Source: Candidatus Sumerlaeia bacterium (GTDB lineage Bacteria > Sumerlaeota > Sumerlaeia > SLMS01). Taken from it: 32,753 nt of DNA. This document shows positions 869-32,752 of the stretch, piece by piece. The notes below the pieces were generated by a model. It was given only the letters and a program-made list of their open reading frames with translations, did not search any database and was not told the DNA's origin. The position numbers and the translations under genes were made by a program. Where the stretch lies: assembly GCA_038208905.1 (NCBI GenBank), contig JBBQYG010000027.1, forward strand, positions 1 to 32,753, given 5' to 3'. Position 1 is the first letter of the stretch. Each line of letters opens with the position of its first letter.

Positions 869-3127
869 TCAGTTACCCGGGCCTTCCGCCAGCATCGCCG
901 ACGCCAGGCCAAGGACTTCGTACTCGGTCTCCCGGCCATCGGGGGTGACGGCGACGAAGGTCTCGCCCACGCGGCGCCCCATCAACTGGGAGCCGAAGGG
1001 GGTCAGGTAGGAGATGATGTTGTTTTCCAAGTCTGCTTCCCACATGCCCATCAGGGTCATCTCGCGTTCCGCGCTGTTGGAAGTTTCGCGGAGGCGGATG
1101 CGCGTGCCGAATCCGCTGGCCTCGGGCTGGGAGCCCTTGAGTTCCACCACACGGGCGCGCGCGATAAGGTCCTCGAGTTCCGCCGCCTGCTGCATGAGCA
1201 GCTTCTGGCGGTCCTTGGCGGCATGGTACTCGGCGTTTTCCTTGAGATCGCCTAGCTCGCGGGCCGTCTCGATGACCTTGGCCATCGCGGGAATATCGTG
1301 AGAGATGAGCTGGGAAAGGTGGCTGCGCTTCTCGTCCAGCGACGCTGACAGGGCGTAGTGGTGCGAGGGCTTCTTGCGCTCCTCGTCCTCCTCCATGCGC
1401 GATGTCTGGCGAAGCTCGATGTGGCGATCGACGAGGATGTCCTCCAGCGAGCGCTTGAGCTGGTGCGAGAGGGCATTGTGCAGGCGGATCGCGTGAAGGG
1501 TCCGGCGCCCTTCCTCCACGGTGGAGGCGACGACGGCGAGCTTGAAGAGCTTGCTGTTGGACTCGTTCAGGAGCGCGCGGACCTTGGTGGCGGAGTTCTT
1601 GGCGGCGACGCCTTCGGCAAGGTTGCGCGACTCGAACTTCTCCTCCAGTTCGGCCAGAACAGAGAGAAGCTCCTCGATGATCATCATCGGTGGCAGGCTC
1701 TCGCGCAGGTGGGGCCATGTGCCGTCGAGGACGTTCTTGGCGGCCCAGACAAAAAGCTCCGGATTTTGATCGGGCTTTGCGAAGATGGTCTCGATGGCGG
1801 CCAGGCGCTCGCCCTCCAGCTTGCGCCCGATCAGTTCCTTCTCCATCCACGACGCGGTGCGCGAATCGAGGTGGATCGTCGATTGAACGAAGACGTCGGA
1901 CCAATCGTCGGGACGGACCTTTTCGACGTGCTCGAGGACAATGCGGCGGGAATCGGGGACTTCGAGGCCGGCGATCAGTTCCACCACATCGGGGCCTGTC
2001 AGCAATGTGTCCACGTTGACGGGATTCGCCTTACCCTCGAAGAGGTCGGAGTACTCAAGAAACAGCACACCGAGACGGAACTGGTCATCGCGGGAGGAGA
2101 GCTTGGCATCGGACACGGCCTTCTGGAAGAGGAGGTAGAGGGCCTCCACGTCGTCTGGCTTCATCTCGGCGTCGGAGCCGTGGCGGCGCACGTCGCGAAG
2201 AACATCGCGGCGCGCGGCGGAGTCCTTGGCCTTGAGGAAATTGGCGAAGATGTCGTCGAAGAAGCTGCGGGGGGCGTCGCGAAGGACGAGTTCGGCATGG
2301 ATGCCGGTGCCAACCTGCTCGATCCAGGGGTCCAGCTTGATGGCCTTGCGGGCGCGCTCCCAGAAGCTCTTGTACTCGTTTTCGGTCAGGAACCGGGCCG
2401 TCAGGACGCGCTTGAGATCGACGGCCTTCATGCGGCCCTTCTCGCCCTTGAGCGCGATACGCAGCACCTCGGCGGGCTTGCCGACGATCATTTCCTTGAG
2501 TGCGTCGGCATCCAGGGTCATGCGCGCGATCAGGTGATCCTTGTGGATCGGGCGCAGGAAATTCCTCACACCGTCCAAGGTCATGACTTGGCCCTTCTTG
2601 CCGGGAAAGTCGATGGTGACCTTCCCCTCGGCCATGTTCAGGTCGCGGACGACGCCGATTCCCCACATGCTGTGCTTGAAGACTTGGCCTTTGGTGGCGC
2701 CAAGGAGGTCGTTGAACCGCTGGTTGATCTTGGCAAGGGGGACGGCGGGATCGCCGAAGCCGGCGCGCTCCATGAAGTCCGGGAGGAGCGCCCCCAACAC
2801 TTCCGTGTAGGCGACCTTGACCGCCTGCTGGTAATGATGGCGGAGGAAATCGTGAGACTCGTTCTGGGCGAGGATCTCTTCGATGATCGCGATGGCGGGC
2901 TCGCCCTTGCCCTTGGCGAGCATCGCATCCAGAAGGCCCTGATAGAGGTCAACAAAGTGCTGCGGCTGCTGCCTGCGGACGAGCTTGTCGATGATCGGCC
3001 CGTGGAAATCGAGCGAGAAGGACTCCGTTTCGATGACCTCCAGCCAGATTTCGTCAACCGTACTCCATCGCTTGGCTTGAATCGCCTGAAGGATTCTTTC
3101 CTGCTGGTCCAGATTCACAGACTCCAA
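869..3127 (-). CDS. greA: Extended GreA/GreB-family transcription elongation factor (~750 aa, Gre domain at the C-terminus)
   Basis: C-terminal ARELGDLKENAEYHAAKDRQ, FGTRIRL and ISYLTPFGSQLMG motifs. Start placed at TTG 3127 behind a GAGGAGGG RBS; the ORF-track start is 3277. Confidence 0.88.
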   Translation of the reverse strand: MESVNLDQQERILQAIQAKRWSTVDEIWLEVIETESFSLDFHGPIIDKLVRRQQPQHFVDLYQGLLDAMLAKGKGEPAIAIIEEILAQNESHDFLRHHYQQAVKVAYTEVLGALLPDFMERAGFGDPAVPLAKINQRFNDLLGATKGQVFKHSMWGIGVVRDLNMAEGKVTIDFPGKKGQVMTLDGVRNFLRPIHKDHLIARMTLDADALKEMIVGKPAEVLRIALKGEKGRMKAVDLKRVLTARFLTENEYKSFWERARKAIKLDPWIEQVGTGIHAELVLRDAPRSFFDDIFANFLKAKDSAARRDVLRDVRRHGSDAEMKPDDVEALYLLFQKAVSDAKLSSRDDQFRLGVLFLEYSDLFEGKANPVNVDTLLTGPDVVELIAGLEVPDSRRIVLEHVEKVRPDDWSDVFVQSTIHLDSRTASWMEKELIGRKLEGERLAAIETIFAKPDQNPELFVWAAKNVLDGTWPHLRESLPPMMIIEELLSVLAELEEKFESRNLAEGVAAKNSATKVRALLNESNSKLFKLAVVASTVEEGRRTLHAIRLHNALSHQLKRSLEDILVDRHIELRQTSRMEEDEERKKPSHHYALSASLDEKRSHLSQLISHDIPAMAKVIETARELGDLKENAEYHAAKDRQKLLMQQAAELEDLIARARVVELKGSQPEASGFGTRIRLRETSNSAEREMTLMGMWEADLENNIISYLTPFGSQLMGRRVGETFVAVTPDGRETEYEVLGLASAMLAEGPGN

Positions 3128-3723
3128 AGACAGTCCCTCCTCGGCGGCTGGGGGGCCCGGGGAAAAGCACCGGGCTCGATTGAGCGCCCAAATGGTGGAG
3201 GCGGGCTCCTCCCGGAGACAAGGCGAAAGACGCCGCTCTTCGATATGCATTCGCGCCGCTGCCTCAGAAGGCTTCACGTAGGCGCGAGGCTTGATTTCGC
3301 AACTCGGAAGCTACCCTGAGTCCTCACAAGATGGGGCAGGTTCCAATGCGGGATGTCGCGACCTTGGCTTCGAGGCGGCATCAAGTTCCTCTTCGGTGAA
3401 CGGGTTGCCGGACTGGGTGGCGGTAATCGTTCCGCCAGATCGGGATCGGAAGAAGCGACTCCATAGAAAGCGATTTATTCGCCGTGTTCCGTCGTTATCC
3501 AGCTTGCGTGGCCATCGGCGCTTGCTGTTGAAAAAAGGCTGCTTATGGAATGAATCGGAAAAGTTCGCGGTAGGGCGAACCCGCTACGCACTTTGTGCCG
3601 ATCAATCAAGGATTCGGCGGTGGTTCTCTAGTTGATGCTTGCGACGTCCGGAAATCGCATGCATCCACTGTCCCGATTTACTCAATCATTCGGCAATCAA
3701 TGGCCCGGGACGGAGTGCCTCAC

Positions 3724-11172: not shown

Positions 11173-12048
11173 TTGTCCACTCCCGCCTCCTCCAGCGATC
11201 TCCGCCTCGCCCTTCCCAAGGGCCGGATGCAGGAACAGGTCTTCAAGCTCCTCGCCGACGCAGGCATTCGGCTGACCACGGGAAGCCGCAGCTATCGCCC
11301 GGTGATTTCGCTCCCGGGCTTCGAAACCAAGATTCTCAAGCCCCAGAATATTGTGGAGATGCTGGACCTTGGCTCTCGCGATGTCGGCTTCGCCGGCGCC
11401 GACTGGGTGGCCGAGCTGAAGGCCAATGTGATCGAGGTGGTGGACACCGGCCTTGATCCCGTCCGCATCGTCGCGGCCATCCCGACCGAGTATTTGGTGA
11501 ACGGCGAGCTGCCCAAGCGCCCCCTGATCGTGGCCTCGGAGTACGAGACGCTGGCCCGCGACTGGATCGCCGCGCGCGGCCAGGGCGACAAGTTTGTCCG
11601 CAGCTACGGCGCCACGGAGGTCTTCCCGCCGGAGGACGCCGACGTGATCATCGACAACACGGCGACGGGTTCGACCCTGCGCGCCAACGGGCTCGAGATC
11701 GTCGCCACGCTGATGACTTCCTCCACGCGGATGTATGTGAATCCGCGCGTGATGGACGACAAGGTTCGGCGCCCCGCGCTGGACCGCCTTGTGCTGCTTC
11801 TGAATTCCGTCCTCGAGGCGCGCCGCCGCGTCATGATCGAGGTCAACGTCGGCGCCGACTTTCTGGAGGCCGTCGCCAAGGTGCTCCCCTCCATGCGCGA
11901 GCACACGATCTCCCAGCTCCATCACGGCGCGGGCTTTGCGCTCAAGTCTGCGGTACTGCGCAAGGACCTGCCCCATGTGATCCCGCAGCTAAAGGCAGCC
12001 GGTGGAACCGATATCGTCGTTACCGATATCGCACAGATCGTCCCCTGA
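11173..12048 (+). CDS. hisG: ATP phosphoribosyltransferase, long form with C-terminal regulatory domain
   Basis: LALPKGRM, DVGFAGADW, SYGATE and DNTATGSTLRANGL, plus the C-terminal HisG_C domain. TTG start after AAAGGAAG. Confidence 0.95.
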   Translation: MSTPASSSDLRLALPKGRMQEQVFKLLADAGIRLTTGSRSYRPVISLPGFETKILKPQNIVEMLDLGSRDVGFAGADWVAELKANVIEVVDTGLDPVRIVAAIPTEYLVNGELPKRPLIVASEYETLARDWIAARGQGDKFVRSYGATEVFPPEDADVIIDNTATGSTLRANGLEIVATLMTSSTRMYVNPRVMDDKVRRPALDRLVLLLNSVLEARRRVMIEVNVGADFLEAVAKVLPSMREHTISQLHHGAGFALKSAVLRKDLPHVIPQLKAAGGTDIVVTDIAQIVP

Positions 12049-12068: not shown

Positions 12069-13409
12069 GTGGAAAACCCAAGTGCCCAGGGAGTCGCCCC
12101 CTCGCCCGGCGTGGCGGGCGTTGTTGCCTACAGCGTGCCGAAACATGGCGCGCCGATTGACCTAAAGCTGGACGCCAACGAGGGCGAAGCCCCCGCGGAG
12201 GACATCCTTCGCCGCATCATCGAACTCGGCCCCGACGTGATGCGCCGCTATCCCGACGCCAGCGCATTGCAGGCGTTGTTGGCCGCGCGATTCGGCGCCG
12301 ATCCCGCGCGACTGATCGTGACCGCCGGGGCCGACGACGCGCTTGATCGCCTGTGCCGCGCGGTGCTGGCGCCGGGGCGCCGGCTGCTGCTGACGAATCC
12401 GTCCTTCGAAATGCTGCCGCGCTATGCACGCATCGCCGGAGCCGAGGTGGACGAGGTCCCGTGGTGGAGCGGCCCGTTCCCCACCGCCGCGTTCATCGCC
12501 GCGATCCAGCCAAGCACCACGCTCGTTGCGATGGTGACGCCGAACAATCCGACGGGGACGGTGGCGAAGCTCGCGGACTTGGAGGCGCTTTCCGCCGCGG
12601 CGCCGAATGCCATCGTGCTTCTCGATCACGCCTACGTGGAATTTGCCGACGAGGACTTTACAAAGCGCGCGCTCGCGATGCCCAACGTGGTGATCGCGCG
12701 GACGCTCAGCAAGGCGTGGGGCCTCGCGGGACTGCGCGTGGGCTATGCCATCGGGCCCGCGCCGGTGATCGGATGGATGCGCGCGTCGGGAGGGCCCTAT
12801 GCCGTGTCGCGTCCGTCGATCGCGCTGGCCGCGGCGCGTATCGAGGCCGACCGCGGAAGCGAGCGGCGCTTCGTCGCGCAGGTCCGCGCCGACCGCGCGC
12901 TGATCCACGCCACGCTGGACGAACTCGGCGTGCCTCACACCGCGTCGGAGGCGAACTTCGCCTTCGTCACGGATCCGCGCGCGCTCTGGATTCGCGATGC
13001 GCTGGCGGGCCTTGGCATTGCGATTCGCGCGTATCCCGGTCATCCGGAATTGGGGCAGTCGCTCCGCATCACCTGCCCCGGCAACGCGGAGCAGGCCGCG
13101 AGATTGGAGCAGGGCATCCGCGCCGCCATCCGGCCAGAGACGATCGTTGTCGCCTTTGCCCCATCCGACGACTGGCGCGATGCCTCGCCGATCCCGGCGG
13201 TGCGATTCCCCACCCCCGGCGACCACATCACGACCACCGGACCCGCGTGGCTGGTGTCTGACGATCCCAGCAAGCTTTCCGCCGCGCGCGCCGCGGGCAT
13301 GGTTCCCATCGGATACGATCCCGAAGGGAACAAAGCGAAGGAATTGACGGCATCGGGCGCCGCGCGCGTCCTTTCCCGTGCCAGCGACCTCAAGGAGATC
13401 CTCCCATGA
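12069..13409 (+). CDS. hisC: Histidinol-phosphate aminotransferase with a degenerate HAD-like C-terminal extension
   Basis: KLDANE, RYPD, TAGADDA, PNNPTG, DHAYVEF and [16 protein letters not shown] (PLP Lys). About 90 extra C-terminal residues. Confidence 0.93.
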
Positions 13410-13993: not shown

Positions 13994-14611
13994 ATGAGCG
14001 CTCCTAGAATTGCCGTCGTCAAGACGGGGCTTGCGAATCTGGCGTCGGTGCTCGCGGGTCTCCGCCGCGCCGGGGCGGAGCCATTCGCCACCGAGGAACC
14101 GTCCGAGGTCGCCGCCGCCTCCCATGTCATGCTTCCGGGTGTGGGGGCGTTCGGCGCCGCGATGGAGACGCTTAACGCGCGCGGCCTGACCGCCGTGCTG
14201 CGCGAGCGCGTCGCCGGGGGACGCCCCACCATGGCGATTTGCCTGGGGCTTCAACTCCTCGCGAAAGAGAGCGAGGAAACCCCCGGCATCGAGGGCCTCG
14301 CGTGCATAGACAAATCCATCGGCCGCCTTCCCGATGGTGTGCGCGTCCCCCAGCTTGGCTGGAACCACGTTGAGCCGGTAGCGGGTTGTCGCCTCCTGCG
14401 CCCGGGCTTCGCATACTTCGCCAATAGCTACTGCCTCCCCGCCGCGCCGGAGGGCTGGTCGCCTGCCTACGTCGAGCATGGCATCCGCTTCGTCGCCGCG
14501 ATGGAGAAGGGGAGTCTGCTGGCCTGCCAGTTCCACCCGGAACTGAGCGGCGCCTGGGGCCTGTCGCTCCTTAAGCGCTGGCTCGGAACCGCCACGGGGG
14601 AGGACGCCTGA
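13994..14611 (+). CDS. hisH: Imidazole glycerol phosphate synthase, glutaminase subunit
   Basis: [28 protein letters not shown] and QFHPE. Confidence 0.95.
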
Positions 14612-15372
14612 TGCTGACACGACGAATCATTCCATGCCTAGATTGCCGCGATGGCCGCGTGGTAAAGGGGATCAAGTTCCAGGGCCTCCGCGACGCGGGC
14701 GATCCCGTGGAGCTTTCGCGCGCCTATGAATTGCAGGGCGCCGACGAGCTTGTGCTCCTGGACGTTTCCGCCACGCCGGAGGGCCGCGGGAATCACCTGG
14801 ATACTGTCCGCCGCGTGCGGGAGATGTTGTCTATACCTCTCACTGTGGGCGGGGGAGTGCGCACTGCTGAGAACGCGCGCGCCCTTCTGGAGGCTGGGGC
14901 AGACAAGGTTGGCGTCAACACCGCCGCCGTCACGAATCCCCAAGTCATCCGCGACATCGCGCGGAACTTTGGCAGCCAGTGCGCCGTCGTCGCCATCGAC
15001 GCGGCGCATCGCCTCGATGGGCCCGGTTGGGAGATCGTCGTGATGAGCGGACGCGAGCGCACGGGCATCGACGCCATCGAGTGGGCCCGCAAGGTCGTCC
15101 ACGAATACGAGGCTGGCGAAATCCTCCTTACAAGCTGGGATCGCGACGGCACGCGCTCGGGCTACGATCTGCCGCTCCTCACGGCAGTCTCCAGCGCCGT
15201 CAACATTCCCGTCATCGCCTCCGGCGGCGCGGCGACGCCCGCGCACCTGCTTGAGGCCATCGAGGCTGGCGCCGACGCCGTGCTGGCAGCCTCGATTTTC
15301 CACGATGGCGAATACAACGTCGGCAGCCTGAAATCCTACCTGAGCGAACGTGGAGTCGCCATCCGCCCATGA
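14611..15372 (+). CDS. hisF: Imidazole glycerol phosphate synthase, cyclase subunit
   Basis: [53 protein letters not shown] and VIASGG. Confidence 0.96.
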
Positions 15373-16640
15373 TTATTCCATCGATCGACCTCATGGACGG
15401 CCAGTCCGTCCAGCTTGTGGGCGGCAAGGCCGAGTCCCGCAGCCAGGAGCGCGAGTACGGCGATCCCTTACCGCTGCTGCGCAAGTTCAGCATCGCGGGG
15501 GAGGTGGCCGTCATCGACCTCGACCGCGCGCTCGGCAAGGGCTCCAACGAGGATGTAATTCGCCGCCTCGTCAAGCAGGCGCCCTGCCGCGTGGGTGGTG
15601 GCATCCGCAGCCTGGAAGCCGCCGTGGCATGGCTCGATGCGGGCGCCGCCAAGATCATTCTGGGCACGGCGGCGAAGCCGGAGATTCTCCGCGAGCTTCC
15701 CGCCGGGCGCGTGATCGCCGCGCTGGATGCCTTCAACAACGACGTGGTGGTGGAGGGCTGGACCAAGAGCACCGGCGTCACGATCATGGATCGCCTGCGC
15801 GAGCTGCGCGAGGACGTTGGCGGATTCCTCGTCACCTTCGTGGAGCGCGAGGGCCGCCTTGGCGGAACCAACATGGAACTAGCCAGGGAGATCGTCGCCG
15901 CCGCCGGCAAGGCGCGCGTCACCTTTGCCGGCGGCATCACCACCGCTGAGGAAATCGCGGAGCTCGACAAGCTCGGCGCAGATTCCCAGGTCGGTATGGC
16001 AATATATACGGGGAGGCTCGACTTCGGCGACGCGATCTCGGCGCCGCTGGTGTCGGATCGCCCCGATGGGCTCTTTCCCACGATCGTCGCCGACGAATCG
16101 GGCGTTGTGCTTGGCATGGCCTATTCGAGCCGAGAGAGCATCCGCGCCGCCGTCGCCCGCCAGTTGGGCATCTACCAGTCGCGCAAGCGCGGCCTGTGGG
16201 TGAAGGGCGAGACCTCCGGCGCGACGCAGGAGCTCTTCGGCATCGCGCTCGACTGTGACCGCGACGCGCTGAGGTTCATCGTGCGCCAGAATGGATCGGG
16301 CTACTGCCACCTCGACCAGTTCACCTGCTTCGGCGATATCAAGGGACTAGCCCGACTCCAGCAGACGACGCAGGAACGGCGCGAGAATGCACCCTCCGGA
16401 TCCTATACCAAGCGCCTATTCGACGACGCGGCGCTGCTGCGCTCGAAGCTGGTGGAGGAGGCCGGCGAGCTCGCCGACGCCGCCACCGCCGAGGACGTGG
16501 CTTGGGAGGCCGCCGACTTGCTCTACTTCGCCTTCGTCGCCATGGCCAAGGCGGGCGTCTCCATCGCCGACGTGGAGCGCCAGCTTGACCTCCGCGCGCT
16601 GAAACTGACCCGCCGCCCCGGCAACGCAAAGGCACCGTGA
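15369..16640 (+). CDS. hisIE: Fused HisA-like isomerase / PR-AMP cyclohydrolase (HisI) / PR-ATP pyrophosphatase (HisE)
   Basis: N-terminal [29 protein letters not shown] and ILGTAA (HisA). Middle [14 protein letters not shown] and CH..TCF (HisI). C-terminal [15 protein letters not shown] and WEAADLLY (HisE). Confidence 0.92.
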
Positions 16641-17896
16641 TGCTCCGCAAGGTTACCGCCGCCGAAGTCCCTTCGCTCCTCCGCGATCCCGTTGACGCGC
16701 CGACGCTGGAAGCCGCGCGCGCCATCGTGGACGACGTCAGGCACAATGGCGAATCCGTCATGCGTCTCTACGCGGAGCGCTTCGGCGAAGTCGAACCCCG
16801 CGCGCCGCTCGTGATCGGCAAGGACACGCTCCGCGCGGCATTCGAGGCGCTTCCCACCAAGGACAAGAACCTTCTTCTTCGCGTTCACGACCGCATCCGC
16901 AAGTTCGCCGAGGCCCAACGCGCGGCGATGAAGGACATCGTGGTGGAACTCCCCGGCGGTAGGGCCGGGCACTTCGTCGCGCCGGTGGAGGTCGCGGGGT
17001 GCTACGCTCCCGGCGGCGGATTTCCGCTCCCGTCTTCCGTCCTGATGACCGCCGTCACCGCGCGCGCGGCGGGCGTGCGGACGGTGATCGTCGCCAGCCC
17101 CAGGCCGCTTCCGATTGTTCGTGCAGCGGCCCACGTCGCGGGTGCCGACATGCTCCTCGCCGTGGGCGGCGCCCACGCCATCGCCGCGATGGCGTTTGGC
17201 GCGGGCGTGCCGCGATGCGATGTCATTGTCGGACCCGGGAGCAAGTGGGTCACCGCCGCCAAGCAGATCGTCTCCGGCCGCGTTGCCATCGACATGCTTG
17301 CCGGTCCGTCCGAACTCGTGGTCCTTGCCGACGATTCCGCAGATCCGTCGATCATCGCCGCGGACTTGTTGGCCCAGGCTGAGCACGGCTTCGATTCGCT
17401 TCCGATCCTCGTCACCACCAGCGCCGACCTGATCGACCGCGTGAACGCAGAGATCGCCGCACAGCTTGAATCCCTTCCCACGCGGGAAACCGCCATCGCT
17501 TCGGTTGGTGGCGGCTATGCCGTGCTCGCATCCACGCTGGACGAGGCCGTTGCCGTGGTGGATGGCATCGCGCCCGAGCACTTGGAACTCCTGATGGAGA
17601 ACGCGTCTTCGGTCGCCACGCGGCTGCGTCACTACGGCGGGCTGTTCGTTGGCGCTGGCGCGGCGGAGGTGCTGGGCGACTATGGCGCCGGGCCGAATCA
17701 CACGCTTCCCACGGGCGGCACCGCGCGATTCACCGGCGGGCTGTCGGTCTTCAACTTCCTGCGCGTTCGAACTTGGATGCGAATCGACGATCTGTGGGCT
17801 GCTCGGGAACTGGTCGAGGACGCGCGCGACCTCGCGCGTCACGAACTGCTGGAGGGCCACGCGCGCTCCGCCGAGAAGAGGCTCGTCAGGCCGTAG
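16637..17896 (+). CDS. hisD: Histidinol dehydrogenase
   Basis: GCYAPGG, VGGAHAIAA, IDMLAGPSE, LAQAEH, APEHLEL, GDYGAGPNHTLPT and EGHARS. Start overlaps the upstream stop (GTGATG). Confidence 0.96.
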   Translation: MMLRKVTAAEVPSLLRDPVDAPTLEAARAIVDDVRHNGESVMRLYAERFGEVEPRAPLVIGKDTLRAAFEALPTKDKNLLLRVHDRIRKFAEAQRAAMKDIVVELPGGRAGHFVAPVEVAGCYAPGGGFPLPSSVLMTAVTARAAGVRTVIVASPRPLPIVRAAAHVAGADMLLAVGGAHAIAAMAFGAGVPRCDVIVGPGSKWVTAAKQIVSGRVAIDMLAGPSELVVLADDSADPSIIAADLLAQAEHGFDSLPILVTTSADLIDRVNAEIAAQLESLPTRETAIASVGGGYAVLASTLDEAVAVVDGIAPEHLELLMENASSVATRLRHYGGLFVGAGAAEVLGDYGAGPNHTLPTGGTARFTGGLSVFNFLRVRTWMRIDDLWAARELVEDARDLARHELLEGHARSAEKRLVRP

Positions 17897-26402: not shown

Positions 26403-28751
26403 CTATCGCGACGCGGCGCCGCCCGGTGCCTCGCCGGATTTAGCCGGTCCCGCTTCCGACGCTTCTCTCATATCCGCGGCTTCGCTTCCGCGACTGACCC
26501 GCCGCATGACTTCCAGATACTCCGCCGCAAAACGGTCGCGCGACTGGCGCGCCATCACGAAGGCCGCGCCGTTGTTGCCGAGTGCCTCCGCCAGTTCGCG
26601 GTTTCCCGCAAGGCGCTGCGCCACCAGAGCCAGCTCTGCATCGTCCTCCGGCGGAAAACAGAGCCCCGCGTTGGCCGTCGCCAGCAATTCCGCCGCGTCT
26701 CCGCGCACGCCCAATAGCACCGGGCGCGCGACGCCCATCGCTTCGAAGAGCTTCGATGGCATCACGGTCTCGAACAATTCCTCGCGGCGCAGATGCACCA
26801 GGCATGCATCGGATTCCGCGAGCAGGATGGGGATCTGTTCCTTCGGGAGGAGGCCAAGAAACAGGACGCGATCAAGCCCCAGCCGCGCTGCCTCCCGCTC
26901 CAGATGGGCGCGTTCGGCCCCGTCGCCCGCCAGCACAAAGACGATGTCGCGCCGCGCCGCAAGGCGATGCGCCGCGCGCAGGACAACTTCCAGCCCGTGC
27001 GCCATTCCGAGGGTTCCCGCATACGTCACCACGAACTCATCCGCGATGCCATGCTTCGCGAGGAGTACCCGTCGGCGAGCGCCTTCCGGAGGGTGGAACA
27101 AATCGAAGTCGATGCCATTCGGTATCACCGCAATCCGGGCGGCTTCGATAGCCCCGGACTCCAGGAGCTTTCCCCTGTAACCATCGCCCACTGTCACCAC
27201 CAGCCGCGCGCGTCTATACATCCAGCGCGCCATGCCTTGCAGGATGCGATAGGCCGTGCTTCGCCGACCAGCCCCCACCGCGACGATGGACTCGGGCCAG
27301 ATGTCGCGGATCTCCAGAATGAACGGCTCCTTGCGGAACAGCGATCCCACGGCCCCCGCCATGCCGCAAAAGAACTGCGGCGATGTTGCCACCATCACGT
27401 CGTGCCTCCTCAGCAACAGGAGCGCCACCTGTGCCGACGCGAAGTAGGAAAGGTAGTTCAGCATCCGCCGATAGCGGCCCTTGTTGGCGGCGACGAAGCT
27501 CCACACGCGGATTGTGCGTATTCCATCCACGTTCTCCTCGCGCCAGAACGCCGTTGAGTAGCCCGCATAGGGCCAGCCATGGGGGGCGCTGGGGATGTTG
27601 GTGATCACGGTCACCTCGTGCCCGGCGCGGGTCCAGCGCCGCGCGTGCTCGTAGAGACGCGACGCGGGTGCATTCACCTCGGGATGGAAATAGTGGGAGA
27701 GAAACAGTATACGCAGCCGAAGCGGATCGCGCGCTCGCTCCATGCGCTCGCCAAACCGAGCCAGCAGCAGCAGGCCAAACGCATAGAGCGCCAGCAGGCT
27801 TCCGCCGCCGGCAAAGGCTATCAGAAGCGACTCCGTCGCATAGACGACATTGACCAGCACGCCCACCTGCAACACCACGATCCAGATCGCAAAAACGACC
27901 CACCGTTCCGTGAAGCCGGCCTCCAGCATCAACGACCGCAGGTGCCCCGTTCCATCGAACTGCTTCCCAGTGCTCAGGCGCACGAGTCCCGTATAGACAC
28001 GGTCGAACATCGGCACCGCCACCGCCATGAGCGTGATAAGGAACATGCCGAGCGTGAAGCCCCACGTGCGTGAGGAGATCGTGGTGGAGGCGAGCAGAAT
28101 CGCCAGCATGAACTGGCCCGCAATGCCCAGGCGAAGCCGGTCCTGCCACTGGTTCAAGAGCAGATGCCCCAGGCACGTTCCCGAGATCGCCATGAGGATC
28201 ACCGGCGCGCCGCCGCTCGACCAGTTGAGGACGAGGCCGGTTAGCGTGAGTCCGATGATAAGCGTGACCCCAGTCGCGAGACCGCGAAGACGGTCGAAGA
28301 TGTTGAGGCTCGTCATCAATCCCGCGTGGAAGAGCACCGTCACGAAGTAGTCGAGAAGCAGGCCGCCCAGTCCCTCCGGATCGCCTCCCACCGGTCCGAT
28401 GCGAAACCGGAATCCGAGAAGGAACCAGGCGCTCGCGAGAACGAATCGGGCCGCGATGGTGATCTGCGTGGGCGGGCGGAGGAGTTGCTCGCCAATGCCC
28501 ACCGCCGCCGCGAGGACCAGCGCCGCCGCAAGCGGCAGCAGCGAGATCGCTGAATCCAGCATTGGAATCATCGGCAGCAGACAGAGAAACGTGGCGAGGA
28601 GCGCGAGCCCACCCGCCAGAACCGCGCCTTCGGATTCCTCGCGATTCGGCGCAATCATGGCAACCGCCCGGCGCAGCGGCCAGAACATGATCGGCGGCAG
28701 CAGCGCCGCCAGCGCGAGGAAGAGGACGATGTCCTGGGTGGACGACATCAT
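26403..28751 (-). CDS. Fusion of a degenerate WecA/MraY-like membrane domain and a GT4 (WbuB-like) glycosyltransferase
   Basis: N-terminal ~340-aa polytopic domain laid out like a WecA/MraY-family (PNPT) membrane enzyme. C-terminal RILFLSHYFHPE, ATSPQFF, EIRDIWPES, YAGTLGMAHGL and PSKLFEAM. Confidence 0.88.
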   Translation of the reverse strand: MMSSTQDIVLFLALAALLPPIMFWPLRRAVAMIAPNREESEGAVLAGGLALLATFLCLLPMIPMLDSAISLLPLAAALVLAAAVGIGEQLLRPPTQITIAARFVLASAWFLLGFRFRIGPVGGDPEGLGGLLLDYFVTVLFHAGLMTSLNIFDRLRGLATGVTLIIGLTLTGLVLNWSSGGAPVILMAISGTCLGHLLLNQWQDRLRLGIAGQFMLAILLASTTISSRTWGFTLGMFLITLMAVAVPMFDRVYTGLVRLSTGKQFDGTGHLRSLMLEAGFTERWVVFAIWIVVLQVGVLVNVVYATESLLIAFAGGGSLLALYAFGLLLLARFGERMERARDPLRLRILFLSHYFHPEVNAPASRLYEHARRWTRAGHEVTVITNIPSAPHGWPYAGYSTAFWREENVDGIRTIRVWSFVAANKGRYRRMLNYLSYFASAQVALLLLRRHDVMVATSPQFFCGMAGAVGSLFRKEPFILEIRDIWPESIVAVGAGRRSTAYRILQGMARWMYRRARLVVTVGDGYRGKLLESGAIEAARIAVIPNGIDFDLFHPPEGARRRVLLAKHGIADEFVVTYAGTLGMAHGLEVVLRAAHRLAARRDIVFVLAGDGAERAHLEREAARLGLDRVLFLGLLPKEQIPILLAESDACLVHLRREELFETVMPSKLFEAMGVARPVLLGVRGDAAELLATANAGLCFPPEDDAELALVAQRLAGNRELAEALGNNGAAFVMARQSRDRFAAEYLEVMRRVSRGSEAADMREASEAGPAKSGEAPGGAASR

Positions 28752-28779
28752 GGCTACGGCTCTCCGAAGGCGGCACCGG

Positions 28780-30573
28780 TCAGAGCGGCTGGATCCTGAC
28801 AACCAGCGGGATCCCGGGGCGGAGCATCGTCGTCGCGCGGATCACGGGGCGCTCGCGGGCGACGCCGAACTGCTCGTATTGCCAGCCATTGATCACGTCA
28901 ACCTCCAGCGATGGCAACCCGCATTCCACCTGAAGGCGCGCCAGATGCGGATGGTCGGATGCGCCGATCATGAAGGAGGCGGGCCCCTCGCGGGATACGA
29001 TCATACCGCGATGGAGCGGAAGAAAGCATTCCACGCGGCGCGGCCTTGCTGGTTCCTTTCCGCGAATGGGTACCAGCGTATCGGTGATTGTATAGACACG
29101 CGAGGAGGCGTCGATTTCGATGACTCGCTCGTGAAGGACTCCCGCCGGAGCGTGCCCGTCGTGCAGGCCGCGGATGCGAAAAGACTCGGGGCCGAGGGGC
29201 GACGCATCGAGCTCCAAGGGATGCCCGCGACGCCCCATGCGAAAGCTCTTCCACGGCGACGCGCATTCGACGGAATCCACGCGCAGGACCGCGTGCTCGC
29301 GCGCGGCGCGCAGCCGACGCCGCGACGGCCCCGCCACATAGATTCCCCCGCCGCCGTCGGAGATGAATCGCCGCCCCGAGAGGGTCAGCTCATAGCCCAT
29401 CAGATCCGCGTGCATGTGAGCCCCAAGATGGTCGGGCCCAAGCGCCGCGCCGTCGAAAATGAGGAAGTCGCCATGCTCCAGATCGCGAAAGACCACATGA
29501 CCATCCCGCGTGCCGAAGCGCAGCGTGCCTCCCCGCGAGTCGGGCTTCGGCGCGATCCGAACGTCCTCGCGCTCGAGGATCCGCGCGCCGGGATCGCGTG
29601 GGGCCAGAACCGAATCCCCCAACAGCGGCAAGCCCCCGTCGGGATGCAGCACAAAGACAAGCAGGGCGGCCATGCGGCCCACCGTGTCCTCCAGCTGACG
29701 CGTCAGATCGCTCCCGTCCCCCCGCCGCAGGATGAGCAGATCGCAGAGCCGCTCCAGCAACTCCGCATGATACATCGGCGAGAACTCGTGATGGAATCCG
29801 CCCGGCGAAATCTGTTCTTCGAGTTGCTTCGCGAGCAGGCGCTCGTGCCGCGTGCGCCGCTTGGCACCTGTTCCGACAAACGCATCCGCGATGTTGAGCG
29901 CGATCAAGTTCTCCAGCAGGTGATTCCCTCGATGTTCCCACTCGATATGCGTGGAGAGAAAACGCGCCTGCTTTGCAATCGACCCCAGCAGCTCGCGCCG
30001 CGAGTCCCTGTCCAGTACGCCACTCCGCTCCAGCGTGGCATAGGCCGCGATCCAGTTGGGGAGGCGCCGGGAAATCGTGTAGGAATGCCACGGCCCCAGG
30101 AATCCTGCCGGCCCGCCAAGGCGGTTGCGGTCGATCCAGCTCCGCATAGCCATCAGGGCAAGATCCTCGCGGCGAGCCCCCAGCAGGTCGAATATCCAAT
30201 CGAAGTAGTGGAGATGGAAGAACCACAGGTGCGAATCGGCGCACTTTCCATCGACGGATATGTAATCCCAGCGCGGCGGGAATCCGAGCGGGATGCCCTG
30301 ACTCAGGAACGTCAGCGATTCGGGCCGGGCGGCGTCCCATGCGCCCGGTGGACGCGTCAGCCGGGCGGCGGCGAGCGGGCCATAGCGTTCGATCAGCGCG
30401 GCGCTGGGCTGCCGAATTCGCGGAGGGCGGGAGCTGGGGCGCCGGGCGCGCACGACGCCTCGACGGATGCGCTCTGCCACTCGCCACAGCAGTTGATCGG
30501 GACGAGTGTATAGAATGCTGTACAGATAGTTCGCCGACGTCCGGCCGATCAGGCGCGCCAGGCTGGCAATCAT
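28780..30573 (-). CDS. Heparinase II/III-family protein of a polysaccharide biosynthesis locus
   Basis: LWFFHLHYFD, PWHSYTISRRLPNW, GNHLLEN, HHEFSPMYH, HPDGGLPLLGDS and AHMHAD. ATG 30573 overlaps the wecB stop. Confidence 0.88.
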   Translation of the reverse strand: MIASLARLIGRTSANYLYSILYTRPDQLLWRVAERIRRGVVRARRPSSRPPRIRQPSAALIERYGPLAAARLTRPPGAWDAARPESLTFLSQGIPLGFPPRWDYISVDGKCADSHLWFFHLHYFDWIFDLLGARREDLALMAMRSWIDRNRLGGPAGFLGPWHSYTISRRLPNWIAAYATLERSGVLDRDSRRELLGSIAKQARFLSTHIEWEHRGNHLLENLIALNIADAFVGTGAKRRTRHERLLAKQLEEQISPGGFHHEFSPMYHAELLERLCDLLILRRGDGSDLTRQLEDTVGRMAALLVFVLHPDGGLPLLGDSVLAPRDPGARILEREDVRIAPKPDSRGGTLRFGTRDGHVVFRDLEHGDFLIFDGAALGPDHLGAHMHADLMGYELTLSGRRFISDGGGGIYVAGPSRRRLRAAREHAVLRVDSVECASPWKSFRMGRRGHPLELDASPLGPESFRIRGLHDGHAPAGVLHERVIEIDASSRVYTITDTLVPIRGKEPARPRRVECFLPLHRGMIVSREGPASFMIGASDHPHLARLQVECGLPSLEVDVINGWQYEQFGVARERPVIRATTMLRPGIPLVVRIQPL

Positions 30574-31757
30574 CGTGCGACTCCCGGCTCCGCAATTCCG
30601 ATGGGCGAATCCGCGTTCCGCGCAACAAGGGCTTCGACAATGCGGTGTGCCGCGGCTCCATCCCAGAGCGCGGGCCGAAACGGCTCGCGCCGCGCGGCGA
30701 GTGCCCGCGCCCACGCCGCGCGCAGTTCCGCGCCCCCGCCCGAAACCAGCTCGCTCGTGCCGCCATTCTCCCGCAGGGTTTCGGGGCGCTCCGTACTCGG
30801 GCGCAGCGTCAGGCACGGCGTCCCCAGCACGCACGCCTCCTCCTGAATGCCGCCGCTGTCCGTCAGTACCACGCGCGCGCGTAGTGTCAGCGCGAGGAGT
30901 TCCGTGTAGGTTAGCGGCTCCGTCAGTATGATGGACCGCGCCGAGGCGAGCTTCTCCCACAGGTTGAACTCAAGCAGCCGCGACCGCGTGCGCGGATGCA
31001 CCGGCATCACGATCGGCAACTCGCGAGAGAGTGATTCCAGCGCCGTCGCCAATTCGCCAAGGCGAGCCAGCGCGTCCACGTTGTGGGGCCGATGCAGCGT
31101 CGCCAGGGCGAAGTTTCGCGGCACCAGCGACGGCATCGTGGATGACGTGAGCAGTTTGGCCCCGCAGGCGGCCTCCGGTTCGATGCGCGCGGCGATGTCG
31201 CGGAAGCGCTCCAGCGAATCGATCATCACATTTCCCACGGCCACGATTCGGCGGCGTTCGGTCCCCTCTGCGAGGAGGTTGCCCGTCGCGGTCTCCCCCG
31301 TTGTCAGCAGCAGATCCGAAAGCCTGTCCGCCACGATTCGGTTGATCTCTTCCGGCATTGCCCAATCGTGGGAGCGCAGGCCCGCCTCTACGTGGGCGAC
31401 CTTTAGCTGGAGTTTCTTCGCCGCAAGCGCCGCCGCCACCGTCGCGTTCACGTCGCCGACCACGATGGTCCAGTCGGGTCGCTCCGAATCCAGCACTCGT
31501 TCCAGCGCAACCATCGACCGACCCACCTGTTCCGCGTGGGTTCCGCTGCCGACGCCAAGGCTCCACGCGGGCTCCGGCAATCCGAACTCGGCGAAGAACT
31601 GCTCGCTCATGGCGCTGTCGTAATGCTGCCCCGTGTGCGCCAGCGAGTGCTCGATCCGCCGCGTGGGGTGCGCCGCGTTCCACGCGACGATCGCGTGATG
31701 AAGCGGCGCCGCCTTGATCAGGTTGGGGCGCGTCCCGACGACGATGATGATCTTCAT
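30570..31757 (-). CDS. wecB: UDP-N-acetylglucosamine 2-epimerase (non-hydrolysing)
   Basis: VGTRPNLIK, HTGQHYD, HVEAGLRS, MPEEINR, GNVMID, TLHRP, TDSGGIQEE and TERPET. Confidence 0.93.
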   Translation of the reverse strand: MKIIIVVGTRPNLIKAAPLHHAIVAWNAAHPTRRIEHSLAHTGQHYDSAMSEQFFAEFGLPEPAWSLGVGSGTHAEQVGRSMVALERVLDSERPDWTIVVGDVNATVAAALAAKKLQLKVAHVEAGLRSHDWAMPEEINRIVADRLSDLLLTTGETATGNLLAEGTERRRIVAVGNVMIDSLERFRDIAARIEPEAACGAKLLTSSTMPSLVPRNFALATLHRPHNVDALARLGELATALESLSRELPIVMPVHPRTRSRLLEFNLWEKLASARSIILTEPLTYTELLALTLRARVVLTDSGGIQEEACVLGTPCLTLRPSTERPETLRENGGTSELVSGGGAELRAAWARALAARREPFRPALWDGAAAHRIVEALVARNADSPIGIAEPGVAR

Positions 31758-32752
31758 GCGTCGAGTGCCTTCCACCAGGTGGCCACGCGCTGCGCCTCAC
31801 CCGTGCGGAGCGACTCAATCGCCGCGAGAGTGACGAGGGATACTTCCAACAGCTCCTCCAGCGGTATGGGCGCCTCTCCGCCGCGGGCGACGGCGCCGAG
31901 AAACGCGCGGACTTCAGCGCGGTGGCCCTTGTCCTGGGCACTGTTGGCACGTTCCACCTTGCCGCCGCGATGCACCGTGAGGCGGCGGAAGTTCTCAAGT
32001 TCCACCGCCGCACCGCCGCCAATCGCGAGAAGGCGTTCCTTCGCCAGCGTCTTCGGTCCGCCAGACCAATACTGAATGGTGCCGATGCTTCCGTTGCGGA
32101 ATCCGAGCTGGATCGTGACGCGATCCTCGACCGGCTTGCCCGCGCCGTCGCGCGCGGAAATGGCGTACACCGAATCGCACGGCGCACCCGCAACCCATCG
32201 CAGCGTATCGGCGAAGTGGCAGGCTTCCCCGACCAGGCGCCCGCCGCCAGCCGCGATGTCGGCGGCCCAGTGTCCTTGCGGGAGCGTTCCCGCGTTCACC
32301 ACATAGTCGAATGCCACGCCGCTCGCGCTGCCGAGCTTCTCCCGCATCGTGCGAATCGTTGGTGCGAAGCGTCGGTTGTAGCCAACGTGAAGCAAGCCCT
32401 TGGCCCCCGTGGCCGCATCGCGGACGGCGCGAAGCTCTGACAAAGTGAGCGCGAGCGGCTTTTCGACAAAGACATTCTTTCCTGCCGCCAGCGCCTCGCA
32501 GGTCAGCGCCGCGTGGTCCGCGTGGCGCGTCGCAATCACAACGGTGCCTACGCCGGGATGTCGCAGCACCTCGCCGGGATCCGTTGTCGCCGCCGCGTTG
32601 GACTGCCTCCCCGCAAGCGCCGCCGACACGCCGCGTCGCGAGGCGAGGATGACGACGCGGGCGCCCTCTTTTTTCAGCAGCGGCAGCAGAACCCGCCGCG
32701 CAAAACTTCCCGTGCCGATGACTCCGACCCCATCGTCGGGCTGCGAACCCGA
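31754..32752 (-). CDS. Gfo/Idh/MocA oxidoreductase domain, probably the C-terminal half of a bi-domain oxidoreductase (runs off window end)
   Basis: Frame open to the window edge; GVIGTGSFA, VIATRHADHA, VFVEKPLA, VGYNRRFAP, GGRLVGEACHF and QDKGH. Confidence 0.88.
   Translation of the reverse strand, partial: SGSQPDDGVGVIGTGSFARRVLLPLLKKEGARVVILASRRGVSAALAGRQSNAAATTDPGEVLRHPGVGTVVIATRHADHAALTCEALAAGKNVFVEKPLALTLSELRAVRDAATGAKGLLHVGYNRRFAPTIRTMREKLGSASGVAFDYVVNAGTLPQGHWAADIAAGGGRLVGEACHFADTLRWVAGAPCDSVYAISARDGAGKPVEDRVTIQLGFRNGSIGTIQYWSGGPKTLAKERLLAIGGGAAVELENFRRLTVHRGGKVERANSAQDKGHRAEVRAFLGAVARGGEAPIPLEELLEVSLVTLAAIESLRTGEAQRVATWWKALDA

Follow-up and report, generated by a model that had tools for sequence, protein, structure and literature searches.

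Can a membrane domain descended from the enzymes that initiate cell-surface glycan synthesis be maintained after the residues of its active site have been lost, and what would such a domain do for the glycosyltransferase to which it is joined? The question is raised by a minus-strand gene at positions 26403..28751 of a 32,753-nucleotide stretch of a Candidatus Sumerlaeia bacterium (contig JBBQYG010000027.1, assembly GCA_038208905.1), the whole of which is referred to here as the window. The gene encodes an N-terminal membrane half related to the polyprenyl-phosphate N-acetylhexosamine-1-phosphate transferases (PNPTs) and a C-terminal glycosyltransferase of family GT4. PNPTs such as MraY, WecA and DPAGT1 control the entry into cell-surface glycan synthesis and are targets of antibiotics; how their lipid-linked products reach the enzyme that follows is, to our knowledge, not yet well understood. 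The reading that we favour, with a probability of roughly 0.55, is that the membrane half is a non-catalytic anchor and lipid-carrier-binding pseudoenzyme module fused to a working GT4 enzyme.

The minus-strand frame is open over 26403..28802 and begins, in the open reading frame (ORF) listing, at an upstream TTG. An ATG at 28751, read directly from the sequence, lies 28 nt downstream of the TGA stop of the upstream gene. We preferred this start to the TTG because of the spacing of a GGAGAG element and because the N-termini of relatives line up with it; the start at 28751 given in an earlier note on this DNA, which was made from the sequence alone, is the better of the two. The GC content at third codon positions (GC3) of the gene is 0.79, which is typical among the genes of the window. 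Its parts are as follows.

26403..28751, minus strand: whole gene, PNPT-like pseudo-domain plus GT4 glycosyltransferase, 782 aa plus stop
28760..28765, minus strand: Shine-Dalgarno-like GGAGAG, 8 nt before the ATG at 28751 (read from sequence)
27717..28751, minus strand: membrane domain of PNPT fold (residues 1-345) with 12 helices predicted (Pfam, phmmer, own profile, AlphaFold2, Foldseek)
27729..27827, minus strand: last membrane helix, residues 309-341, leading into GT4 strand 1 at residues 347-351 (models)
26454..27716, minus strand: GT4 (GT-B) glycosyltransferase domain of WcaI/WbuB type, residues 346-766 (Pfam, NCBIfam, alignments, model)
26406..26453, minus strand: low-confidence C-terminal tail, residues 767-782 (predicted local distance difference test, pLDDT, <50 for residues 771-782)

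Ancestry and erosion of the membrane domain

The PNPT ancestry of residues 1-345 was recognized by several routes. A match of the called protein to PF00953 (residues 75-226, E 2.4e-4) covered positions 5-158 of the 160 in the profile with a score of 21.6 bits, under the cut-off (GA) of 27 bits, and the N-terminal domain scored 28.2 bits in a six-frame search; for the called protein, the Pfam check proposed in the earlier note came out well in extent and short in score. When 1.84 billion representatives were searched by phmmer with residues 1-345, 1,895 matches were obtained at E<=0.001, 40 at <=1e-10 and four at <=1e-30. The four were members of the protein's own clade, and all 24 of the next-best matches that were scanned proved to be strong PF00953 proteins (94.9-147.2 bits). 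A profile built from 29 intact PNPT domains recognized the window protein with an E value of 4.7e-38. Since the phmmer comparison of the domain with the PDB sequences returned no match at E<=10, a fold search was required. The AlphaFold2 model of residues 1-345, built from a 98-row alignment, is PNPT-like and has 12 helices, with a mean pLDDT of 89.1 and a predicted template modelling score (pTM) of 0.88. Searching the PDB with this model by Foldseek yielded 37 matches at E<=0.001 (TM 0.57-0.66), every one of them a chain of MraY or human DPAGT1, beyond which the E value jumped to >0.3. The homology assumed in the earlier note therefore stands, and we firmly conclude that the N-terminal domain is PNPT-derived, with the fold of MraY, WecA and DPAGT1.

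To describe the state of the active site, we compared 25 clade members with 33 intact PNPTs (12 from intact PNPT-GT4 fusions, 17 standalone and the genome's own four), with columns numbered after Aquifex MraY and residues of the window protein given separately. In MraY, according to PMC6606608, D117, D118 and D265 are critical, D265 coordinates Mg2+, and K70, G194, L195, D196 and F262 form the uracil pocket; PMC5039524 assigns to D117 the binding or deprotonation of undecaprenyl phosphate (C55-P). The corresponding motifs in the window gene were located at the aligned columns.

28485..28499, minus strand: former DD motif GxxDD, now G85-I-G-E88-Q89 (columns D117/D118)
28281..28304, minus strand: former loop-C NxxDGxDG, now N150-IFD153-R154-L-R156-G157
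28113..28133, minus strand: former loop-D Mg site F(L/M)GDxG, now R207-L-G209-I210-A-G212-Q213
27933..27944, minus strand: former loop-E HxHH, now H270-L-R-S273

The four motifs had been read earlier as GIGEQ, NIFDRLRG, RLGIAG and HLRS, and these readings were exact; the losses recur in 25/25 of the clade. At the metal site, the D265 column holds Asp in 33/33 intact proteins and an acidic residue in 0/25 clade members, where it is hypervariable with nine different residues (S8, V4, T3, R3, I2, A2, L1, N1, P1). The uracil-stacking Phe of the F262 column, present in 33/33 intact PNPTs, is absent from all 25 clade members (R11, H5, Q3, K2, S2, M1, T1), as is the uracil-pocket Asp of the D196 column, which 31/33 intact proteins possess (clade R17, K3, H3, P1, A1). 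Similar changes affect the G194 column (G in 29/33 intact; R16, S7, A1, N1 in the clade), both loop-C Asn columns (each N in 33/33 intact, compared with 0/25 at N187 and 4/25 at N190) and the second Asp of the DD motif, D118 (D in 33/33 intact; E10, Q7, T5, S2, I1 in the clade). The loop-E His triplet is found in 32, 28 and 31 of the 33 intact proteins, position by position, and in 16, 10 and 0 of the 25, while the loop-A motif DxPxxRKxH of intact PNPTs is absent in the clade members displayed. The window protein itself carries E88, Q89 and I210 in place of the three critical Asp residues, R154-L155-R156 together with R207 in the columns of the uridine pocket, and a single His in the former HxHH.

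What has been kept is of a different kind. The column of D117, the contact to the lipid phosphate, is Asp in 32/33 intact proteins and Glu in 24 clade members (Ile in one), and the D193 column, D153 in the window protein, is Asp in 33/33 and 25/25, respectively. An acidic residue at D250 (25/25) and R258 (22/25) are likewise retained in the clade, in which two new residues, Q213 and a basic residue of the R156 type (23/25 each), are conserved as well. The catalytic erosion claimed in the earlier note is accordingly correct for the key residues and is not total, with D153 invariant and E88 nearly so. Erosion has thus been selective: the nucleotide and metal side has been dismantled, with largely basic replacements, and the acidic residue in contact with the lipid phosphate and the Asp of the D193 column have been retained.

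Two PNPT paralogs of the window's own genome, L002 (G000:C100) and L004 (G000:C163), carry Asn at the D196 column (DNMNGL and DGINGI); in L004 the His motif of loop E is changed as well, to HLYQRH. Both retain the DD motif and the Mg-binding Asp; partial motif variation therefore occurs in otherwise canonical PNPTs.

The eroded domain is maintained under purifying selection and is not decaying. The clade alignment of 23 sequences contains 23 invariant columns within residues 1-345, including D153, G157, G209, S227-R228, W230 and P247. The ratios of nonsynonymous to synonymous substitution rates (dN/dS) for the N-terminal domain and the GT4 domain were 0.135 and 0.150 in the pair L011/L012, and 0.067 and 0.090 in the pair L016/L018. 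These are the two usable same-genus pairs, L013/L014 and four more distant pairs with saturated dS having been left out, and the values are rough because dS is near saturation. Retention of the dead domain, as the earlier note had supposed, is thus borne out by selection resembling that on the GT4 half and by its presence in 10 genomes.

The glycosyltransferase half and the reality of the fusion

The GT4 domain is intact, as previously assumed. Four Pfam models matched it above their cut-offs (PF00534, 71.7 bits; PF13692, 67.5; PF13579, 66.2; PF13439, 48.2), recognizing both Rossmann-like halves of a GT-B enzyme, and the model displays alternating strand-helix units across residues 347-766. 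The motifs SHYFHPEVNAPASR, ATSPQFFCG, RDIWPES, GTLGMAHGL, GDGA and PSKLFEA are present, are invariant or nearly so in the clade, and agree with the consensus of standalone GT4 proteins, to which the window domain is 44-52% identical. The best NCBIfam match was NF007640 (WcaI family; E 1.7e-49, residues 347-750), at 168.9 bits against a curated cut-off of 276, so that the domain would be WcaI-family-like and no closer than that; where the earlier note names WbuB, the best curated match is therefore WcaI. The acceptor used by WcaI and WbuB is the product of the initiator, a lipid-diphosphate-linked sugar to which they add a further sugar.

The full-length model, built from a 121-row alignment, reached a pLDDT of 91.3 and a pTM of 0.85. 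Only about five residues link the two domains, helix 309-341 leading into strand 347-351, and the model suggests that the PNPT remnant and the GT4 domain are rigidly coupled. By analogy with MraY topology, the number of helices and the location of the former cytoplasmic loops would put the C-terminus on the cytoplasmic side, and the GT4 domain with it. A two-chain complex prediction for the separated domains scored 0.02, a value that counts neither for nor against docking.

The fusion is not confined to one genome. The degenerate domain was found in 10 of 75 genomes of the phylum, the window genome included, and was always fused. All 10 belong to two families of one order: seven of 10 other genomes in the window's family and two of 11 in the second family carry it, compared with 0/53 elsewhere. 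The open frames in the 10 genomes encode 659-847 aa, the shortest lying at a locus end. In the protein database, 22 further relatives of ~770-813 aa and 46-57% identity were retrieved, two of which bear Sumerlaeota or Sumerlaeia names and are annotated merely as 'glycosyltransferase'; PF00953 had been flagged beforehand in five of the 22. No standalone copy of the degenerate domain occurred among the best N-domain matches. One protein, P0026 (470 aa), breaks off inside the GT4 domain.

The junction near 27717 is bridged, with no indels or joints, by contigs from three of four public sequencing runs, representing three studies, and one of these runs may be the window's own source; contigs of the fourth run (X4) do not bridge it, which is not evidence of a break. 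An assembly-derived fusion, considered as a candidate explanation, was ruled out, as far as assembly data can show, on the strength of the 10 genomes, the 22 further proteins and these junction-crossing contigs.

Gene neighbourhood and the wider GT4 subfamily

In the window, the fusion gene is the last of a minus-strand run composed of a GFO/IDH/MocA oxidoreductase, a WecB-type 2-epimerase, a heparinase II/III-like protein and the fusion.

28780..30960, minus strand: heparinase II/III-like protein, the upstream gene (Pfam matches begin at residue 290)
30570..31775, minus strand: WecB-type non-hydrolysing UDP-GlcNAc 2-epimerase (TIGR00236, 284.4 bits, above cut-off)
31754..32752, minus strand: GFO/IDH/MocA oxidoreductase, cut by the contig end

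The true start of the heparinase-like gene is uncertain, its longest ORF overlapping wecB. We surveyed the context in the window and seven related loci, 142.5 kb in total. Immediately before the fusion, 6/8 loci have the heparinase-like gene on its upstream side (none was found in L020, and L024 is not long enough to show it); WecB is encoded in 6/8 and a GFO-type oxidoreductase in 5/8. No intact PNPT or monotopic phosphoglycosyl transferase (PGT) is encoded in these 142.5 kb. The window's own genome encodes elsewhere MraY (TIGR00445, 357.3 bits), three WecA-like PNPTs and three Bac_transf proteins, that is, monotopic PGTs; the separate initiating transferase that the earlier note had suggested looking for is therefore available in trans, from either superfamily.

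Bi-domain oxidoreductases of 705-962 aa, combining ADH_zinc_N and GFO_IDH_MocA, recur in such clusters (L021:3327-6212, L022:14419-16536, L025:10779-13028), the window copy being cut by the contig end at 32752. Elsewhere in the window, on the plus strand, positions 15369-16640 encode a 423-aa protein that unites a His_biosynth barrel of HisA/HisF type with PRA-CH and PRA-PH (HisI and HisE) domains, within a his cluster that also holds HisG (11173-12048), an aminotransferase (12069-13409), a HisF-like protein (14611-15372) and HisD (16637-17896). On the minus strand, 869-3277 is an 802-aa ORF with GreA/GreB domains only at residues 646-789; the rest is either a long N-terminal extension that is so far unexplained or the result of an ORF call that runs too far.

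The GT4 subfamily is widespread as a standalone protein of ~430-480 aa. Of 80 GT4 loci from many phyla, with flanks of up to 7 kb, 59 have a heparinase-like gene as a neighbour, 39 have WecB and 37 a GFO-type oxidoreductase; initiating enzymes are rarer neighbours, with an intact PNPT at 11 loci and a monotopic PGT at six. An intact PNPT gene adjoins the GT4 gene in L075 and L076, and is separated from it by one ORF in L033 and L063. A Candidatus Sumerlaeota metagenome-assembled genome (L035) carries a standalone GT4 of the subfamily with an intact PNPT gene ~3.3 kb upstream, which may represent the unfused, active arrangement within the same phylum.

Because a 'lyase-like' protein is here tightly tied to a biosynthetic glycosyltransferase, a WecB epimerase and a GFO oxidoreductase, the association suggests a sugar-modifying, not a degradative, role for the heparinase II/III-like partner. 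The heparinase-like domain is also fused to the C-terminus of the GT4 in P0038, P0083 and P0089, at three separate places in the tree, and other fusions of the subfamily involve DUF3485 (P0110, P0111) and 4Fe-4S dicluster domains (P0063). We found no description of the heparinase-like/WbuB/epimerase module in the literature searched, subscription journals being outside its coverage.

A second class of fusions, ~955 aa long (13 clusters; P0024-P0036), joins an intact PNPT with all four motifs (PF00953 at 135.6 bits) to the same GT4 subfamily. Its GT4 domain is ~50% identical to that of the window protein and likewise has the WcaI-family model as its best NCBIfam match. These proteins contain a ~160-residue middle segment with no Pfam match (e.g. 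residues ~340-500 of P0024). In the GT4 tree, which covers 119 domains, the 24 rows of the degenerate class and the 13 rows of the intact class each formed one clade (Shimodaira-Hasegawa-like approximate likelihood ratio test, SH-aLRT, 99), and the intact class was nested among standalone GT4s. Joining both classes cost 94.5 log-likelihood units in a 41-row subsample (p of the approximately unbiased (AU) test, 7e-5), a post hoc grouping that was named after the tree had been seen. Descent of the degenerate clade from intact ~955-aa fusions was rejected by the tree and the AU test, and no member of the ~955-aa class occurred among the 150 best phmmer matches of the N-terminal domain. On these sequence comparisons, the PNPT-GT4 fusion arose at least twice, independently, which argues that the GT4 of this subfamily works directly downstream of a PNPT.

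Function of the remnant and comparison with known systems

We propose that the gene product is a two-domain inner-membrane protein in which the half descended from a PNPT would fix the GT4 domain rigidly, through its short linker, at the cytoplasmic face of the membrane. Neither UDP-sugar binding nor phospho-sugar transfer would be expected of this half, because the Asp that binds Mg2+ has been lost, together with the uracil pocket, the His cluster and the motif of loop A. The remnant would most likely still bind the polyprenyl-(di)phosphate end of the acceptor, by means of E88, the invariant D153 and the new Arg, Lys and His residues now found where metal and nucleotide were once bound. Initiation would be carried out in trans by an intact WecA-like PNPT or a monotopic PGT of the genome; the GT4 domain would then add the next sugar to the lipid-diphosphate-linked sugar, with the donor probably supplied by the co-transcribed module of WecB epimerase, GFO-type oxidoreductase and heparinase II/III-like protein. 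The role put forward in the earlier note, that of a membrane anchor or a module presenting undecaprenyl diphosphate-linked sugar, would fit the pattern of residues kept and lost.

Several observations weigh against this reading. The loss of activity and the lipid binding, together with the order of the steps, are what we infer and not what we observed. Together, E88, D153 and the Glu found at the second DD position in 10/25 clade members make up an acidic cluster with which some chemistry may still be possible. Two strong PF00953 paralogs of the own genome have Asn at the D196 column, so that the loss of D196 alone is not diagnostic. The intact PNPTs in the folding alignments could have biased the models toward the PNPT fold; dS values of ~1.2-1.4 are near saturation, with only two usable pairs; and the cluster is cut at the contig end (32753), so that a cognate initiator may lie just beyond it.

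A more specific proposal, which is tentative and in our estimate somewhat doubtful, is that the old site has been rebuilt as a metal-free, Arg-rich receptor for the diphosphate of the polyprenyl-diphosphate-sugar, capturing the initiator's product for the fused GT4. In such a receptor, R154, R156 and R207 would replace G194, D196 and F262, with E88 and D153 kept. If true, no earlier pseudoenzyme would have been described in the polytopic PGT superfamily, and the domain would provide a natural case of substrate channelling by a dead enzyme domain.

Among the alternatives, the one that survives best is a plain membrane anchor, in which the remnant tethers the GT4 domain and binds nothing. It would account for the disappearance of the catalytic, metal and nucleotide residues, for the faster long-range divergence of the N-terminal domain (whole-clade mean pairwise identity over 253 pairs, 39.8% vs 57.0% for GT4) and for the many GT4 relatives that lack a membrane domain (79 standalone proteins in the tree). 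However, a tether has no need of 12 helices, nor of the polar residues kept in the active-site loops (D153 25/25, E88 24/25, Q213 23/25, R258 22/25, acidic D250 25/25), and between close relatives the purifying selection on the N-terminal domain equals that on the enzyme half. We therefore consider a plain anchor unlikely.

As far as is known, solved PNPT structures are dimers. The dead domain might accordingly serve as a scaffold that pairs with an intact WecA-like PNPT and brings the GT4 domain to the product of the initiator. The three WecA-like paralogs would provide partners, and the association of MurG with MraY and of Alg13/14 with Alg7, reported in PMC8993221, lends the idea some precedent; against it, the 142.5 kb surveyed contain no intact PNPT gene in linkage with the fusion, and we judge it improbable.

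It also seems to us a long shot that the domain is still an enzyme, catalysing phospho-sugar transfer or another lipid-carrier reaction through E88, D153, D250 and new basic residues that replace Mg2+. An acidic residue is indeed kept at the columns of D117 (24/25), D193 (25/25) and D250 (25/25), the conserved new residues (R156 type and Q213, 23/25 each) suggest a remodelled, non-random site, and the available flanks encode no initiator. Yet the Mg-binding Asp, the uracil-stacking Phe and D196, which are needed according to PMC6606608, are all absent in 25/25, and the D265 column, with its nine residues, is unlike that of a replacement catalytic residue. An artefact, through chimeric assembly or through an ORF call that merges two neighbouring genes, can be dismissed as next to impossible, with nothing found in its favour and being refuted within the limits of assembly data by the same continuous frame in 10 genomes and 22 further proteins from several sources, by indel-free junction-spanning contigs from three studies and by the typical GC3.

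On the preferred reading, a conserved PNPT domain that binds neither nucleotide nor metal would set the part of the fold that binds the lipid carrier apart from the part that catalyses, and the fusion would offer a simple system for studying the hand-over of lipid-linked intermediates. The 'glycosyltransferase' annotations of ~780-aa proteins hide a PNPT-derived domain missed by standard Pfam thresholds. The significance is bounded by the small size of the clade, which is confined to one order of an uncultured phylum, and by a function that is inferred.

With the PNPT (polyPGT) family, the N-terminal domain shares the fold, the helix order, the positions of the cytoplasmic loops and the D193, G197, G264, P247, D250 and R258 columns. 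It differs in the absence of the Mg-binding Asp, the second Asp of the DD motif, both loop-C Asn residues, D196, F262, the loop-A motif and the His cluster, in a score for the called protein under the Pfam cut-off, and in the added C-terminal GT4. That GT4 resembles the WcaI/WbuB-type enzymes in its best match to NF007640, albeit below the cut-off, and in the motifs shared with standalone relatives. In MraY-MurG and Alg7-Alg13/Alg14, a PNPT likewise forms a physical assembly with the GT-B enzyme that acts after it (PMC8993221), but the association is non-covalent, the PNPT is active and the partner is of GT28 type, not GT4.

Among monotopic PGTs, fusions of the PGT-GT kind form a class that is already established (PMC11626204), and in these bifunctional proteins ('BiPGT') an initiating transferase is likewise covalently joined to a downstream glycosyltransferase. 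They belong to the unrelated monotopic Bac_transf superfamily and both of their domains are catalytic, whereas the window protein, on its sequence, lacks the catalytic residues in its PGT domain. Neither a degenerate polytopic PGT nor a PNPT-GT4 fusion was found described in the literature searched, which did not extend to subscription journals, and to this extent the remark in the earlier note that the architecture is not known stands; it has to be qualified by the ~955-aa fusions, which have the same domain order and the same GT4 subfamily, and differ in a PNPT with every catalytic motif and in the middle segment. The novelty of the window protein lies in its degenerate PNPT and not in the coupling, since intact PNPT-GT4 and monotopic PGT-GT fusions both exist.

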